A DNA stretch of 64,000 nucleotides. Origin: Escherichia coli (GTDB taxonomy: Bacteria > Pseudomonadota > Gammaproteobacteria > Enterobacterales > Enterobacteriaceae). Every line of letters begins with the position of its first letter. The stretch's first letter is position 1. The DNA is taken from the NCBI RefSeq assembly GCF_003334405.1, contig NZ_QOWM01000003.1. The stretch is one strand, 5' to 3'. Both the position numbers and the translations under genes were made by a program. Under the pieces are notes generated by a model that made no database searches, had not been told where the DNA came from, and saw nothing but the letters and a program-made list of their open reading frames with translations. Positions 15,231 through 24,053 of this stretch are shown piece by piece.

Positions 15231-15246
15231 TGTGATTTGCATCACA
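15231..15246. promoter_or_regulatory. CRP binding site upstream of azuC
   Basis: Perfect palindromic TGTGA-TTTGCA-TCACA; a second CRP-like site TGTGA-N6-TCATA at 15261-15276. Confidence 0.65.
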
Positions 15247-15328
15247 TAAAGATTGATTTTTGTGATGGTTGTCATATTATAAGCGCAAAGACAATAACAC
15301 CTGTATAACAAATAGTCGGAGTGCCGCG

Positions 15329-15415
15329 ATGAAACTGCGCAAAATCCTGAAAAGTATGTTCAATAACTATTGCAAGACGTTCAAAGACGTACCGCCAGGC
15401 AATATGTTCCGATAA
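15329..15415 (+). CDS. azuC: small protein AzuC (28 aa)
   Basis: ATG with RBS GGAG; translation MKLRKILKSMFNNYCKTFKDVPPGNMFR; too short for the ORF track. Confidence 0.8.
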   Translation: MKLRKILKSMFNNYCKTFKDVPPGNMFR

Positions 15416-15444
15416 CAAAAAACCTGCTCCGGCAGGTTTTTTTG
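15416..15444 (+). terminator. rho-independent terminator of azuC
   Basis: ACCTGC-TCCG-GCAGGT hairpin followed by TTTTTTT. Confidence 0.75.
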
Positions 15445-15529
15445 TGTCCTGATGACGGTGGATGTGACTATCGCTGAAGATGTGAAGCCGCTACTATAAC
15501 GGCTTTCAAAATGCTATCAGGAGTTTACG

Positions 15530-15781
15530 ATGTCCCAGCCGCTGAATGCCGATCAGGAACTGGTTTCTGATGTGGTTGCTTGCCAGTTGGTTATCAAACA
15601 AATTCTGGATGTTCTCGATGTAATCGCGCCCGTTGAAGTTCGTGAAAAAATGTCCAGTCAGCTGAAGAATATCGACTTTACTAACCATCCCGCCGCCGCA
15701 GACCCGGTCACCATGCGGGCAATCCAAAAAGCCATCGCGCTTATTGAACTCAAGTTTACCCCACAGGGTGAATCCCATTAA
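15530..15781 (+). CDS. yecJ: DUF2766 protein YecJ (83 aa)
   Basis: Translation [24 protein letters not shown]... matches YecJ; RBS AGGAG upstream. Confidence 0.85.
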
Positions 15782-15784
15782 AAA

Positions 15785-15817
15785 AACCGCTGCTTCAAAC
15801 AGATGAGGCAGCGGTTT
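15785..15817. terminator. bidirectional terminator between convergent yecJ and ftnB
   Basis: 7-bp stem CCGCTGC/GCAGCGG flanked by an A-run and TTT. Confidence 0.5.
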
Positions 15818-15859
15818 CTCAAAACCTTCATCGGCGCAATGCATTAGCGCCGATGATGA

Positions 15860-16363
15860 TCAATGCAGCTGGTGTGACACGACATTCAGAACATGTTGGT
15901 CGGTCTGCACAGGGCACATACCCGCAAGTTTCGCACTGCGCACTTCATCAAGAATGGTTTGCAGCAACAGACCATCATGCTGCTGTTCTTTTTCCAGATC
16001 GCGCAGGAAATTGACGGTTGAATCATCATTCAGTTCTTTCGCTTCATCGGCTAACTGTGCCAACGTACTAGAACGTTGCTCGTATTCTTCCATCGTTTTT
16101 TGGAACAGTTCTTCCAGAGAGTTCAGTTTTTCACCGGGAACATCAATGGCTTTAACGATGGGGGTAGCGCCGACACTCTTCATAAAGTTAAACATGCGCA
16201 TCATTTGGGTCACATTACTCTGTGCCTGGGCGCGAAGGAAAGTGGCGGTGCCGTTCAGACTCTGTTCAGAACACCAGTTACTCAGGTGAAGGTAGAGATT
16301 GGATGCGTAAAACTCGCGGTTCATTTGAGAGTTGAGTTTGAGAAGCATTCCAGCGGTTGCCAT
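15860..16363 (-). CDS. ftnB: ferritin-like protein FtnB (167 aa)
   Basis: Translation [31 protein letters not shown]... matches FtnB. Confidence 0.93.
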
Positions 16364-17159
16364 ACCTAATATCCTTATATCCAGAAGTGGAGAGGTGCAA
16401 GATAAATCAAAACACCATAATTACTGTTTGCAGAATAATTCCTTTCTGCCGGTCCGAAATGTGATCGTGGAGTCAATTCTGACGATGATCTGAAATAAGA
16501 ATAACGTCTGAACGGGTATAAGAAAATGCTTAAATCATCAAGTTTATATATTTTTACATTTCATTGATGAAATCAATGTAACTGCAATGAATTTTAATGA
16601 TAGTGCTTTTTGTATCTTGTTGATATTAATCAATGAATTTGAATTCATGATGAAGTGATGATTTTATAAAACGTTTTTTCATTTTTGCGAGATGGCTCTC
16701 ATTATACGTGTTCTGTTAATTAATGAGCACAGTGATAATTAATGACGAAATGAATGACGTGCATTTTCCACATCTTTGAGTTGCGGTTATTACACCATTT
16801 CAAAAACTCAACGCCAGGTAATGCGGCCTATTGACTGGTTAAAAAGAAGACATCCCGCATGGGTACCAAAGACAACAAGGATTTCCAGGCTAATCTTATG
16901 GATTAATCTGCTGTGCATTCGACAATTTGTCTGACAAATTGGCTTTCCCTTATGTCTTTTCCCGCTAAATTTATGCACGTTCTCACTGTAATTCTGCGAT
17001 GTGATATTGCTCTCCTATGGAGAATTAATTTCTCGCTAAAACTATGTCAACACAGTCACTTATCTTTTAGTTAAAAGGTAATGCTTTGTTTTCCGATTAA
17101 TTTAACGAATGTCATTCGTTTTTGCCCTACACAAAACGACACTAAAGCTGGAGAGAACC

Positions 17160-18149
17160 ATGCACAAATTTACTAAAGCCCTGGCAGCCATTGGTCTGGC
17201 AGCCGTTATGTCACAATCCGCTATGGCGGAGAACCTGAAGCTCGGTTTTCTGGTGAAGCAACCGGAAGAGCCGTGGTTCCAGACCGAATGGAAGTTTGCC
17301 GATAAAGCCGGGAAGGATTTAGGGTTTGAGGTTATTAAGATTGCCGTGCCGGATGGCGAAAAAACATTGAACGCGATCGACAGCCTGGCTGCCAGTGGCG
17401 CAAAAGGTTTCGTTATTTGTACTCCGGACCCCAAACTCGGCTCTGCCATCGTCGCGAAAGCGCGTGGCTACGATATGAAAGTCATTGCCGTGGATGACCA
17501 GTTTGTTAACGCCAAAGGTAAGCCAATGGATACCGTTCCGCTGGTGATGATGGCGGCGACTAAAATTGGCGAACGTCAGGGCCAGGAACTGTATAAAGAG
17601 ATGCAGAAACGTGGCTGGGATGTCAAAGAAAGCGCGGTGATGGCGATTACCGCCAACGAACTGGATACCGCCCGCCGCCGTACTACGGGATCTATGGATG
17701 CGCTGAAAGCGGCCGGATTCCCGGAAAAACAAATTTATCAGGTACCTACCAAATCTAACGACATCCCGGGGGCATTTGACGCTGCCAACTCAATGCTGGT
17801 TCAACATCCGGAAGTTAAACATTGGCTGATCGTCGGTATGAACGACAGCACCGTGCTGGGCGGCGTACGCGCGACGGAAGGTCAGGGCTTTAAAGCGGCC
17901 GATATCATCGGCATTGGCATTAACGGTGTGGATGCGGTGAGCGAACTGTCTAAAGCACAGGCAACCGGCTTCTACGGTTCCCTGCTGCCAAGCCCGGACG
18001 TACATGGCTATAAATCCAGCGAAATGCTTTACAACTGGGTAGCAAAAGACGTTGAACCGCCAAAATTTACCGAAGTTACCGACGTGGTACTGATCACGCG
18101 TGACAACTTTAAAGAAGAACTGGAGAAAAAAGGTTTAGGCGGTAAGTAA
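17160..18149 (+). CDS. araF: L-arabinose ABC transporter periplasmic binding protein AraF (329 aa)
   Basis: Recognised N-terminus MHKFTKALAAIGLAAVMSQSAMA (signal peptide), RBS GGAGAG; track ORF N-extended to 17109. Confidence 0.95.
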   Translation: MHKFTKALAAIGLAAVMSQSAMAENLKLGFLVKQPEEPWFQTEWKFADKAGKDLGFEVIKIAVPDGEKTLNAIDSLAASGAKGFVICTPDPKLGSAIVAKARGYDMKVIAVDDQFVNAKGKPMDTVPLVMMAATKIGERQGQELYKEMQKRGWDVKESAVMAITANELDTARRRTTGSMDALKAAGFPEKQIYQVPTKSNDIPGAFDAANSMLVQHPEVKHWLIVGMNDSTVLGGVRATEGQGFKAADIIGIGINGVDAVSELSKAQATGFYGSLLPSPDVHGYKSSEMLYNWVAKDVEPPKFTEVTDVVLITRDNFKEELEKKGLGGK

Positions 18150-23535: not shown

Positions 23536-24037
23536 AACCTGTTCCTTATTCTGTGAACTTCAGGTGACATTAAAGCTTTACTCCTAATGGAGAAACGACG
23601 CAATCCCAACTCGGTCAAACAGGTAAATATTAGTCTGATTATTAGTAAAGACAATTAATCAATCACTCCCGGTGATCATATAATTTCAAATGTAATTATA
23701 AGAAAATAGTGTACTGATTCTCCGCATTAAACAAGTGGTTAATATATGTAAAACATTTCATTAACATTAAGTTGATTGTTGCCTTTCTTTGTATTTAATT
23801 AGTTTGTTGTGCGGTAAGTGTCTGTTTAAAAATAGCTTATCTGGTATTGCATGAAAGTGATTATTTATAGCAGATGATTATTTACGGTGAGTTATTTTGA
23901 CTGTGCGCAACATCCCATTTCGATTATTCCTGTTTCATTTTTGCTTGCTAGCGTAGCGAAAAACTTTTTAACAGATTGAAATACACCCAAAACAAAAGTA
24001 TGACTTATACATTTATGTTAAGTAATTGAGTGTTTTG

Positions 24038-24053
24038 TGTGATCTGCATCACG
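24038..24053. promoter_or_regulatory. CRP binding site of the flhDC class-1 promoter
   Basis: TGTGA-TCTGCA-TCACG, 9/10 to the CRP consensus; centred about 71 bp upstream of the inferred TSS. Confidence 0.6.

Follow-up and report, generated by a model that had tools for sequence, protein, structure and literature searches.

A long AT-rich gap between ftnB and araF in Escherichia coli: two constrained control modules that very probably flank a drifting spacer

The promoter of the araFGH operon of Escherichia coli reportedly carries two AraC sites, araFG1 and araFG2, and a CRP site, as described by Hendrickson et al. in 1990 and 1992 and by Johnson and Schleif in 2000. Upstream of the ferritin gene ftnA, H-NS is displaced from far-upstream sites by Fur. 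In the araFGH promoter of strain K-12, which has a weak -10, the CRP site lies over the -35 and AraC acts upstream, with all known elements downstream of position 16785 in the coordinates used here (PMC2893085). Transcription from it depends on arabinose and cAMP according to the same source, and expression of araF is abolished in an araC mutant (PMC8489885). A second araF promoter, sigma-S-dependent in vitro, has also been reported (PMC3141248); it is not among the promoters placed below. For ftnB (yecI), the 5' UTR is described as 127 nt long with four GGA motifs, and footprinting located three CsrA sites in it, of which one covers the Shine-Dalgarno sequence (PMC6686035). The gene is among those activated by Cpx (PMC9600279), and a second start, approximately 66 bp downstream of the annotated one, was found to be active in minimal medium (PMC13273102). 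Moreover, the 'silent' FNR sites listed by Myers et al. 2013 include one at this locus (PMC3688515). Published work is our source for where H-NS, sigma-70 and FNR bind, for the footprints of CsrA, for the dependence on Cpx and for the order in which the CRP and AraC sites lie.

The DNA analysed is a stretch of 64,000 nucleotides of an E. coli genome (the window). In it, the gap between ftnB (15860-16363, minus strand) on the left and araF (17160-18149, plus strand) on the right extends from 16364 to 17159 and aligns base for base with positions 1986129-1986924 of MG1655 (K-12 coordinate = 2003288 - window coordinate), with ~99% identity. It is thus the same locus as that of the ftnB and araFGH literature. 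A preliminary description, made from the sequence alone, had seen here a very AT-rich non-coding block of about 800 bp and the longest intergenic region of the window. This was borne out, since the gap measures 796 bp and holds no coding sequence, its GC content is 34.8% versus 50.4% for the whole window, and it surpasses, by a narrow margin, the 779 bp of the flhD-uspC gap, which is only that long because the strain is without the IS1H element of MG1655. The GC content falls to 27.2% in the block 16500-16760, and of all 250-bp stretches in the 64 kb, the one lowest in GC begins at 16491. The region was found in 5418 of 5426 complete E. coli genomes, and across the species the RefSeq annotation contains nothing in it apart from occasional IS1 insertions.

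In pairwise alignments among Escherichia species, identity was 92-97% on the ftnB side and 84-91% on the araF side, compared with 61-66% between E. coli and the other species in the core, where shuffled controls reach 55% at most. The 34-39% difference in the core matches the 27-40% found among these species at fourfold sites of araF and ftnB. The six E. coli sequences compared differ at 29 of the 308 core columns, whereas the flanks have 1 variable column in 204 and 10 in 284. Across genera, homology detected by blastn and nhmmer was limited to 16364-~16567 and ~16866-17159, and on the araF side it starts at the distal AraC site (16876). The conservation profile that had been suggested as a check has two faces: both flanks are conserved, across genera too, whereas the core is conserved in sequence only within Escherichia. 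We consider it very probable that the gap is a divergent regulatory region in which two constrained control modules, independent of each other (16364-16567 and 16876-17159), flank a drifting spacer, 16568-16875.

In the araFGH module (16876-17159, plus strand), the distal AraC full site, CAGCAGATTAATCCATAAGATTAGCCTGGAAATCCTTG (16876-16913, minus strand), is made up of two 17-bp half-sites 21 bp apart that point away from araF. With three mismatches to the tandem consensus, it is the sole such match in the window, where none is expected (0 in 100 shuffles), and it is almost invariant in 23 genomes from several genera; it is probably araFG2. The proximal full site, CAGTGAGAACGTGCATAAATTTAGCGGGAAAAGACATA (16951-16988, minus strand, five mismatches), is the second-best tandem AraC match in the whole window, lies within a 95-bp block that is near-invariant across genera, and is probably araFG1. 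The two best matches of the 64 kb are hence both located upstream of araF on the same strand, and both have the opposite orientation to araI of araBAD. A CRP site, TGTGATATTGCTCTCC (17000-17015, plus strand), with two mismatches to TGTGA-N6-TCACA, overlaps the -35 position, and its GTGTGATg..GCTCTC is kept in all genera aligned. With the centre of this site (17007.5) at -41.5, transcription would start at 17049. The core promoter (17035-17049, plus strand) has a weak -10, GCTAAAACTA; CCCGCTAAAACTA is conserved there, and conservation ends at ~17046, so that we place the putative start at ~17047-17049. This start and the proposed AraC and CRP coordinates derive from motifs and conservation, not from footprints, and nothing differs in kind from the K-12 promoter. 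The order of the sites agrees with the published statements (PMC2893085). A second CRP candidate (TGTCAACACAGTCACT, 17045-17060, with a start near 17094) was rejected, being conserved in Escherichia only, unlike the site at 17000-17015. The weak -10 promoter would then depend on CRP over the -35 and on AraC at the two upstream tandem sites.

The araF 5' leader (17050-17159, plus strand, ~110 nt) contains as conserved blocks GGTAATGCTTTGTTTT (17077-17092), CCCTACA (17125-17131) and the Shine-Dalgarno sequence CTAAAGCTGGAG. The CCCUAC(A) of the transcript is complementary to the 5' end of the Spot 42 RNA, GUAGGGUA, with -15.4 kcal/mol for nt 1-16 of the latter; the duplex predicted with the full-length RNAs is uninformative, being equalled by 23% of shuffles. 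Repression of AraFGH synthesis by Spot 42 is stated in the title of Chen and Gottesman 2017, as cited in PMC8489885. The leader is likely a Spot 42 target, CCCUAC(A) being the predicted pairing site. An upstream ORF in the leader (ATG at 17081, 31 codons) was discarded: it is open in all Escherichia species and broken by stops in other genera, so that the conservation of the block GGTAATGC is not that of a coding sequence.

On the opposite side, the ftnB module (16364-16567, minus strand) begins with the CsrA-bound 5' leader (16364-16491, minus strand), ~127 nt long from the distal start, in which the features of the literature, namely the 127-nt leader, the four GGA motifs and two starts ~66 bp apart, can be read from the sequence. 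The GGA motifs are located at 16372-16374, 16380-16382, 16440-16442 and 16453-16455, the first of them (AAGGAT) overlapping the Shine-Dalgarno sequence as expected for a CsrA-controlled leader. Identity of the leader is 92-97% among Escherichia species, and its conservation across genera is block-wise. Since the leader comprises 127 nt, the distal start should be at 16490. The distal, annotated promoter (16489-16503, minus strand) has its candidate -10, TATTCT, at 16498-16503 and its start at ~16490-16491, and the single published sigma-70 ChIP-seq peak in the gap (U00096.2 1984820) corresponds to window position 16492; the block gCGcTATgCTtATTt is conserved in the cross-genus alignment. For the proximal promoter (16425-16437, minus strand), a putative -10, also TATTCT, lies at 16432-16437 and the start would be an A at ~16425, within a block, GGAtTTATTCTGCtAACAGTA, that is near-invariant across genera. 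A candidate CpxR-like box, GTAAAAATATATAAA (16543-16557, minus strand), has one mismatch to GTAAA-N5-GTAAA and is centred ~60 bp upstream of the distal start; ATGTAAAAAAAnATAAAC is near-invariant from Escherichia to Salmonella and Citrobacter. Thus, two weak TATTCT promoters (starts at ~16491 and ~16425) would drive ftnB leftward, with a CpxR-type box at ~-60, and CsrA bound to the GGA motifs of the leader, one of which covers the Shine-Dalgarno sequence, would repress translation.

In this way, the promoters of ftnB and araFGH with AraC and CRP sites, which the preliminary description had expected in the gap and could not locate by eye, were placed by motif statistics together with cross-genus conservation. 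A simple sigma-70 scan of the region returned no promoter and confirmed none of those placed (0 found versus 3.1 expected); all promoters in the region are weak or activator-dependent. A search for Fur sites, also proposed there, yielded none recognisable in the region, the best match having 7 mismatches of 19. Like the upstream region of ftnA, which lies 2 kb away in the same window, this one is AT-rich, H-NS-bound and upstream of a ferritin gene, but, unlike that region, it is without a detectable Fur box. In agreement with this, a study in Salmonella found no Fur box for ftnB (PMC3212961).

The AT-rich core (16568-16875, ~300 bp) is covered by H-NS and holds the inverted repeats and the TAATTAATGA repeats that had attracted attention at first sight. 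The repeat ATGAAT-TTGA-ATTCAT is present at 16633-16648 as given, and CATTGAT-GAA-ATCAATG is present too, although its coordinates were one base off and should read 16562-16578. Neither is conserved in other Escherichia species, and both were rejected as binding sites. TAATTAATGA does recur, at 16717 and 16736, but not beyond chance, as two repeated 10-mers compare with 0.83 expected and 20% of shuffles equal them. Perfect inverted repeats (arms >= 6 bp, loop <= 8) numbered 15 in the gap versus 3.2 +/- 2.1, and 0 of 300 dinucleotide shuffles reached 15; the count is inflated because of nested registers of about six palindromes. CATTGATGAAATCAATG shows a TTGA-N5-TCAA spacing, one base short of that of FNR and CRP sites. 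The core is single-copy in the 5426 E. coli genomes, plasmids and phages searched and has no phage match, and was rejected as a mobile or repeated element; seven matches filed as 'plasmid' are in records of 0.39-4.9 Mb and are taken to be chromosomal sequence filed as plasmid. The core evolves at approximately the neutral rate, is coated by H-NS and bears AT-rich palindromes that would have arisen by chance. Counting against this explanation are short islands conserved among Escherichia species inside the core (ATTGATAT, CATGATGA, TTAATTAATGA, GGTGATAATTAA and AAAAAGAAGAC).

The slot of the core is occupied in Citrobacter, Salmonella, Leclercia and other genera by a gene for a DJ-1-family protein of 185 aa. 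Between araF and ftnB, this gene is intact in 26 of 38 loci, decaying in 3, and none of the 7 Escherichia loci has it. In Citrobacter, the gap measures 1392 bp, 596 bp more than the 796 bp of E. coli, and this difference is approximately the 558-bp DJ-1 coding sequence plus its 3' flank. In E. coli, 512 bp separate the ftnB ATG and the first AraC site, the same as the 490-560 bp of the ancestral DJ-1/ftnB intergenic region; the latter is AT-rich in all genera (32-39% GC). In tblastn searches, the DJ-1-family proteins of Citrobacter and Salmonella gave only matches with E > 1 in the region, and no DJ-1-family similarity was detected in any Escherichia intergenic sequence; in Citrobacter sp. R56, a remnant with 51% identity is retained. 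A pseudogene remnant in E. coli was rejected, as it was undetectable by tblastn, blastn and nhmmer: extensions by nhmmer into the Citrobacter DJ-1 coding sequence had very low posterior probability, and an E-INS-i alignment scattered the core over the columns of the DJ-1 gene with no signal. On the ftnB side, nhmmer extends the homology weakly, with low posterior, to ~16660 in Citrobacter and Salmonella, and blastn of the core against other genera found no homolog. Between genera, where fourfold sites differ by 43-67%, any neutral DNA would be unalignable. Most likely, the core is the orphaned distal half of an old AT-rich ftnB/DJ-1 intergenic region, what remains after the ancestor of Escherichia would have lost, presumably by deletion, a gene that other Enterobacteriaceae kept; this loss would be the reason why the gap is so long. 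As to the event itself, clean deletion, decay of a pseudogene and replacement are indistinguishable on these sequences. Gene loss has occurred repeatedly in this neighbourhood: the DJ-1-family gene is lost or decaying in several Citrobacter lineages, and araF and araG were lost in Salmonella enterica subsp. diarizonae.

Inside the core, TTGATATTAATCAA (16620-16633), ~135 bp upstream of the distal ftnB start, is a perfect FNR consensus and the only perfect match to TTGAT-N4-ATCAA in 64 kb. It is absent from the preliminary description and adjoins the second inverted repeat named there. It is among the 'silent' sites of Myers et al. 2013, in whose Table S6 it appears (1984679, TTGATTAATATCAA, score 15.49) as H-NS-enriched and free of an FNR ChIP-seq peak (PMC3688515). 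The H-NS ChIP-chip region 1983947-1985830 (U00096.2) of their Table S3 corresponds to 15482-17365 of the window, in line with the nucleoid-protein sites suspected in the gap. H-NS would keep the perfect box unoccupied in vivo. Beyond the findings of these authors, we observed that only part of E. coli has the perfect box, whose right half is lost in other Escherichia species and polymorphic within E. coli, and that the surrounding DNA evolves neutrally. A polymorphic box in neutral DNA is more readily explained as a chance match in AT-rich sequence than as a site that is being maintained. Neither by occupancy and conservation nor by position does it behave as the site of an FNR-activated promoter, since its centre is at ~-135, not near -41.5 or -61.5.

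Alternatively, the core could be a silencer or insulator selected on its composition, which nucleates an H-NS filament damping both promoters; the FNR box would then work only once H-NS is displaced and confer conditional anaerobic control of ftnB or araFGH. The neutral rate in the core may be compatible with such selection on base composition, i.e., for H-NS binding. The 1.9-kb H-NS ChIP-chip region is centred on the gap, all Escherichia species keep a core GC content of 33-35% and a gap length of 789-800 bp although 35-40% of the sequence has changed, and the core does contain the few short conserved islands. Furthermore, ftnB of Salmonella is bound and repressed by H-NS and activated by Fnr (PMC3212961), FNR binding far upstream of E. 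coli ftnB is attributed there to Partridge 2007, and an oxygen response of araF, araG and yecJ is seen only in the hns stpA mutant background (PMC3688515, Table S11). However, no FNR peak near the locus appears in the hns stpA data of Table S7, searched by coordinates and for araF (PMC3688515), and the variation of the box within E. coli falls exactly in its right half. Genera that retain the DJ-1 gene have DNA just as AT-rich upstream of ftnB, and the AT-richness there therefore did not arise with the loss of the gene. Moreover, mutation in enterobacteria is AT-biased, and DNA free of constraint should drift under it to about 33% GC as well. Overall, a selected silencer seems to us unlikely, if worth keeping in mind.

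Between the two AraC sites lies a 19-bp palindrome, CAATTTGTC-T-GACAAATTG (16923-16941), for which we know of no binding protein. Of 23 aligned genomes, 17 retain its ATTTGTCnGACAA, which the Citrobacter freundii group has lost; within E. coli, only the outermost pair and the central base are polymorphic. The TnGT-N3-ACnA core of the palindrome resembles what we take to be operators of GntR-family regulators. It is doubtful that both parts of a joint reading hold, namely that araFGH has a third, undescribed regulator with the palindrome as its operator and that the AT-rich core is an orphaned, H-NS-coated promoter region.

Instead of being an ancestral leftover or a pseudogene, the core might be foreign AT-rich DNA which, by insertion and deletion, replaced the DJ-1 gene in the ancestor of Escherichia. 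Its very low GC content and the failure of blastn to find homology in any other genus would fit, and present-day recombination at the site is evident from the IS1 insertions and from a deletion bounded by IS1. We nevertheless regard this origin as improbable, since no second copy exists in the 5426 E. coli genomes, plasmids or phages, the ftnB-side homology extends weakly in profile searches to ~16660, the lengths fit a simple deletion of the DJ-1 coding sequence, and missing homology is to be expected anyway at the neutral divergence between genera. It is highly improbable that the core hides an unannotated gene for a small protein or for a small RNA, the latter suggested at the outset: the gap is long, has many short ORFs of 26-56 codons and two weak terminator-like hairpins, and is enriched in inverted repeats, but all core ORFs are interrupted by stops or frameshifts in other Escherichia species, no Rfam match was obtained at E <= 1, the core diverges as fast as neutral DNA and has many indels, the only sigma-70 ChIP-seq peak in the gap is that of the ftnB promoter, terminator-like elements number 2, both weak, versus 0.9 expected and promoter-like ones 0 versus 3.1, and the MG1655/RefSeq annotation is empty here, though the neighbouring azuC, azuR, yecU and yecV are annotated.

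Nearly all elements of the region are known from the literature, to which the present work makes the small additions of a history of gene loss and a neutral rate for the core. The region is ordinary because its control regions have already been studied and its spacer drifts freely, and a well-studied promoter pair in the best-known bacterium has little discovery value. It may serve as a worked example of how conservation divides a long AT-rich gap into two control modules under constraint and a spacer that evolves neutrally. A textbook-perfect FNR box may arise by drift in AT-rich DNA and be silenced by H-NS, which calls for caution in motif-based regulon prediction. If the core is indeed orphaned, the control DNA of the DJ-1 gene would have been kept in Escherichia as an H-NS-coated spacer that generates, and then silences, consensus sites such as the FNR box.

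The gap between ftnB (15860-16363, minus strand) and araF (17160-18149, plus strand) was described from the sequence alone as the longest intergenic region of the window and as very AT-rich. Both statements hold, the first narrowly: it measures 796 bp, against 779 bp for flhD-uspC in this strain; MG1655 has an IS1H element upstream of flhD that is absent here (junction at 24010-24017). The gap has 34.8% GC compared with 50.4% for the window, and the lowest-GC 250-bp stretch of the 64 kb begins at 16491. Compared with MG1655, the window runs in reverse complement and is about 99% identical (99.07% over 1356-24017 and 99.96% over 24010-63221), and the gap is collinear, the K-12 coordinate being 2003288 minus the window coordinate. 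It is present in 5418 of 5426 complete E. coli genomes. The MG1655 annotation holds no feature between araF and ftnB, and RefSeq annotates nothing under the gap except occasional IS1 insertions. In strain 2017.09.02CC (locus L042), IS1 lies within the ftnB leader with flanks overlapping by 9 bp (window 16400-16408); in strain Ecol_542 (L043), a deletion bounded by IS1 extends from window 16566 across araFGH and otsB and reaches into otsA; strain H6 is a third case of IS1 in the gap.

Conservation was followed in 38 loci encoding FtnB relatives, one genome per species, seven of them Escherichia and the rest Citrobacter, Salmonella, Leclercia, Lelliottia, Enterobacter, Silvania and others. Three segments were distinguished. 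The ftnB side (16364-16567) is 92-97% identical between E. coli and other Escherichia, with 1 of 204 columns variable among six E. coli, and the araF side (about 16867-17159) is 84-91% identical, with 10 of 284 columns variable. The AT-rich core between them (16568 to about 16875) is 61-66% identical to other Escherichia (84% to the closest lineage), with 29 of 308 columns variable. Between genera, blastn and profile searches limited homology to 16364-about 16567 and about 16866-17159; for the core, blastn gave none and the profile search only a weak extension from the ftnB side to about 16660. Since shuffled controls reached at most 55% identity, the core is orthologous within Escherichia. 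Between species it differs by 34-39%, as much as the neighbouring araF and ftnB do at fourfold-degenerate sites (27-40%), and the match holds in the closest lineage (16% versus 12-21%). This comparison indicates that the core is evolving at about the neutral rate. Five short islands kept among Escherichia species were seen inside it, at 16619-16626, 16647-16654, 16715-16725, 16732-16743 and 16842-16852 (ATTGATAT, CATGATGA, TTAATTAATGA, GGTGATAATTAA and AAAAAGAAGAC).

The core is single-copy in E. coli and showed no phage match. It gave no Rfam match and has no ORF conserved across Escherichia; with its roughly neutral rate, this leaves the suggested unannotated small RNA without a candidate. 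Elsewhere in the window, the enterobacterial sRNA STnc370 gave a weak sub-threshold Rfam match between azuC/azuR and yecJ (15411-15475, minus strand; 33.4 bits against a gathering score of 54, E = 0.065). The core does contain the sole perfect FNR consensus of the window, TTGATATTAATCAA at 16620-16633. Other Escherichia species lack its right half, which is also variable among E. coli strains: 2956 of the 5426 genomes have the exact 30-mer with the box, and strains that diverge read ..ATCGA, ..ATCGG or ..AACGA. Published ChIP data place no FNR peak on the box but record H-NS enrichment there (PMC3688515 Table S6). A published anaerobic H-NS region (1983947-1985830, window 15482-17365) spans the entire gap, in agreement with the suggested nucleoid-protein binding (PMC3688515). 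In an hns stpA strain no FNR peak is listed at the locus (PMC3688515), and only in this double mutant are araF, araG and yecJ 2.7- to 3.3-fold higher aerobically than anaerobically (PMC3688515 Table S11). All motifs quoted in the preliminary description were found in the gap. Short perfect inverted repeats number 15 against 3.2 in dinucleotide shuffles, a count inflated by nested registers, and the TAATTAATGA repeat is no more frequent than chance in such shuffles. Both inverted repeats that had been singled out lie in the core and are E. coli-specific, and we concluded that the core palindromes probably arose as by-products of drift in AT-rich DNA and are not maintained as sites.

The promoters and the AraC and CRP sites, presumed in the preliminary description to lie in the gap, could be placed in the conserved flanks by motif matches and conservation. 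The ftnB 5' UTR is 127 nt long with four GGA motifs (Pourciau et al., PMC6686035), and exactly four were found on the minus strand at 16372-16455. CsrA footprints cover three of them, most strongly at the Shine-Dalgarno sequence, and CsrA-dependent translational repression has been demonstrated (PMC6686035). The leader length puts the start at 16490, and a sigma-70 ChIP-seq peak at U00096.2 1984820 maps to 16492 (PMC3688515 Tables S1 and S2), using a 1976-bp offset between the two K-12 versions that was verified by the exact mapping of the FNR box. A second start about 66 bp downstream is active in minimal medium (2026 study, PMC13273102). TATTCT hexamers precede the distal start (16498-16503, minus strand) and the proximal one (16432-16437, minus strand), the latter in a block nearly invariant across genera. 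Cpx activates ftnB (PMC9600279), and a putative CpxR-like box with one mismatch, GTAAAAATATATAAA at 16543-16557, is kept from Escherichia to Salmonella. A motif search of the gap gave no recognisable Fur box on the ftnB side or elsewhere; Salmonella ftnB is likewise reported without one (PMC3212961).

On the araF side, single AraC half-sites occur in the window no more often than expected (40 versus 42). The tandem full-site pattern with at most 3 mismatches matched once in 64 kb, with none expected, at the distal site CAGCAGATTAATCCATAAGATTAGCCTGGAAATCCTTG (16876-16913, minus strand); the next best match is the proximal site (16951-16988, minus strand). In a 23-genome alignment both lie within almost invariant blocks, as do a CRP site with 2 mismatches, TGTGATATTGCTCTCC (17000-17015), and the block CCCGCTAAAACTA. 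Conservation ends at about 17046, and taking the CRP centre as -41.5 would put the start at about 17047-17049, with a leader of about 110 nt. This placement agrees with the published ParaFGH order, with CRP over the -35 and AraC upstream, and with that study's primer (window 16785), said to take in all known regulatory elements (PMC2893085). A second CRP-like match at 17045-17060 was rejected for want of conservation. Elsewhere, a perfect CRP consensus TGTGATTTGCATCACA (15231-15246) and a one-mismatch site 30 bp away (15261-15276) lie just upstream of azuC/azuR, and another one-mismatch site (24038-24053) lies upstream of flhD. A sigma-S-dependent second araF promoter has been reported (PMC3141248).

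Conserved blocks of the araF leader are GGTAATGCTTTGTTTT (17077-17092), CCCTACA (17125-17131) and the Shine-Dalgarno sequence. CCCUAC could base-pair with the complementary 5' end of Spot 42, a pairing site that we infer here; by its title, Chen and Gottesman 2017 (via PMC8489885) reports that Spot 42 represses synthesis of the araFGH transporter. A 31-codon upstream ORF (17081-17176) overlaps the araF start, with its ATG inside the conserved block GGTAATGC; it reads through in every Escherichia species and is stop-interrupted in other genera. Between the two AraC sites lies a 19-bp palindrome, CAATTTGTC-T-GACAAATTG (16923-16941), kept in 17 of 23 aligned genomes and polymorphic in E. coli at the outermost pair and central base only. 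We found no known binding protein for it; its centre, TTGTCnGACAA, looks like a possible GntR-family operator.

An intact gene for a 185-aa DJ-1-family protein, encoded on the araF strand, separates ftnB from araF in 26 of the 38 loci and so in most of those outside Escherichia (for example at 2927-3484 in L010 and 2889-3446 in L011, of Salmonella enterica subsp. diarizonae, with 24 others). The protein scores 122-126 bits against NCBIfam 'DJ-1 family glyoxalase III', slightly under the cut-off of 131. Three loci carry a truncated or decayed copy and three others none; the gene is also absent from all 7 Escherichia loci and from window 16364-17159. Truncation or decay arose independently in Citrobacter sp. 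Cu233 (L016) and Citrobacter sp. R56 (L040), and the gene is frameshifted in Leclercia adecarboxylata NCTC13032 (L038) and is absent from a Citrobacter MAG (L009). The Citrobacter gap exceeds that of E. coli by 596 bp, and the DJ-1-family coding sequence measures 558 bp. In Citrobacter and Salmonella the AT-rich DJ-1/ftnB intergenic region (32-39% GC) mostly measures 490-560 bp; the ftnB ATG of E. coli lies 512 bp from the first AraC site. The simplest reading is that the gene was deleted in the Escherichia ancestor, which would have joined its orphaned upstream DNA to the araFGH control region. Because neutral DNA is unalignable at between-genus divergence (43-67% at fourfold sites), a fully decayed pseudogene or a replacement may instead occupy its place. 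In L011, araF and araG are missing (about 2047-2870), a 141-codon ORF resembling the araH 3' end survives, and next to the DJ-1-family gene a remnant of the araFGH control region can still be recognised. Other genera conserve a palindrome, TGAAACA-N-TGTTTCA, between the DJ-1-family gene and ftnB (about 3700-3760 in L011; about 25-35 nt upstream of the DJ-1-family ATG in L028-L039). In Leclercia, Lelliottia and Silvania it reads ATGAAACATTGTTTTA, and at about 16668-16683 in E. coli only a degenerate version, TGAAAAAACGTTTTAT, is present.

The earlier interpretation is partly right: it stands for the promoters, the AraC and CRP sites and nucleoid-protein binding, but the gap shows no Fur box and no small RNA. 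Almost every functional element of the gap had been published before. What is added is modest: the placement of sites by conservation, the polymorphism of the 'perfect' FNR box, the conserved palindrome between the AraC sites, the neutral rate of the core and the probable loss of the DJ-1-family gene.
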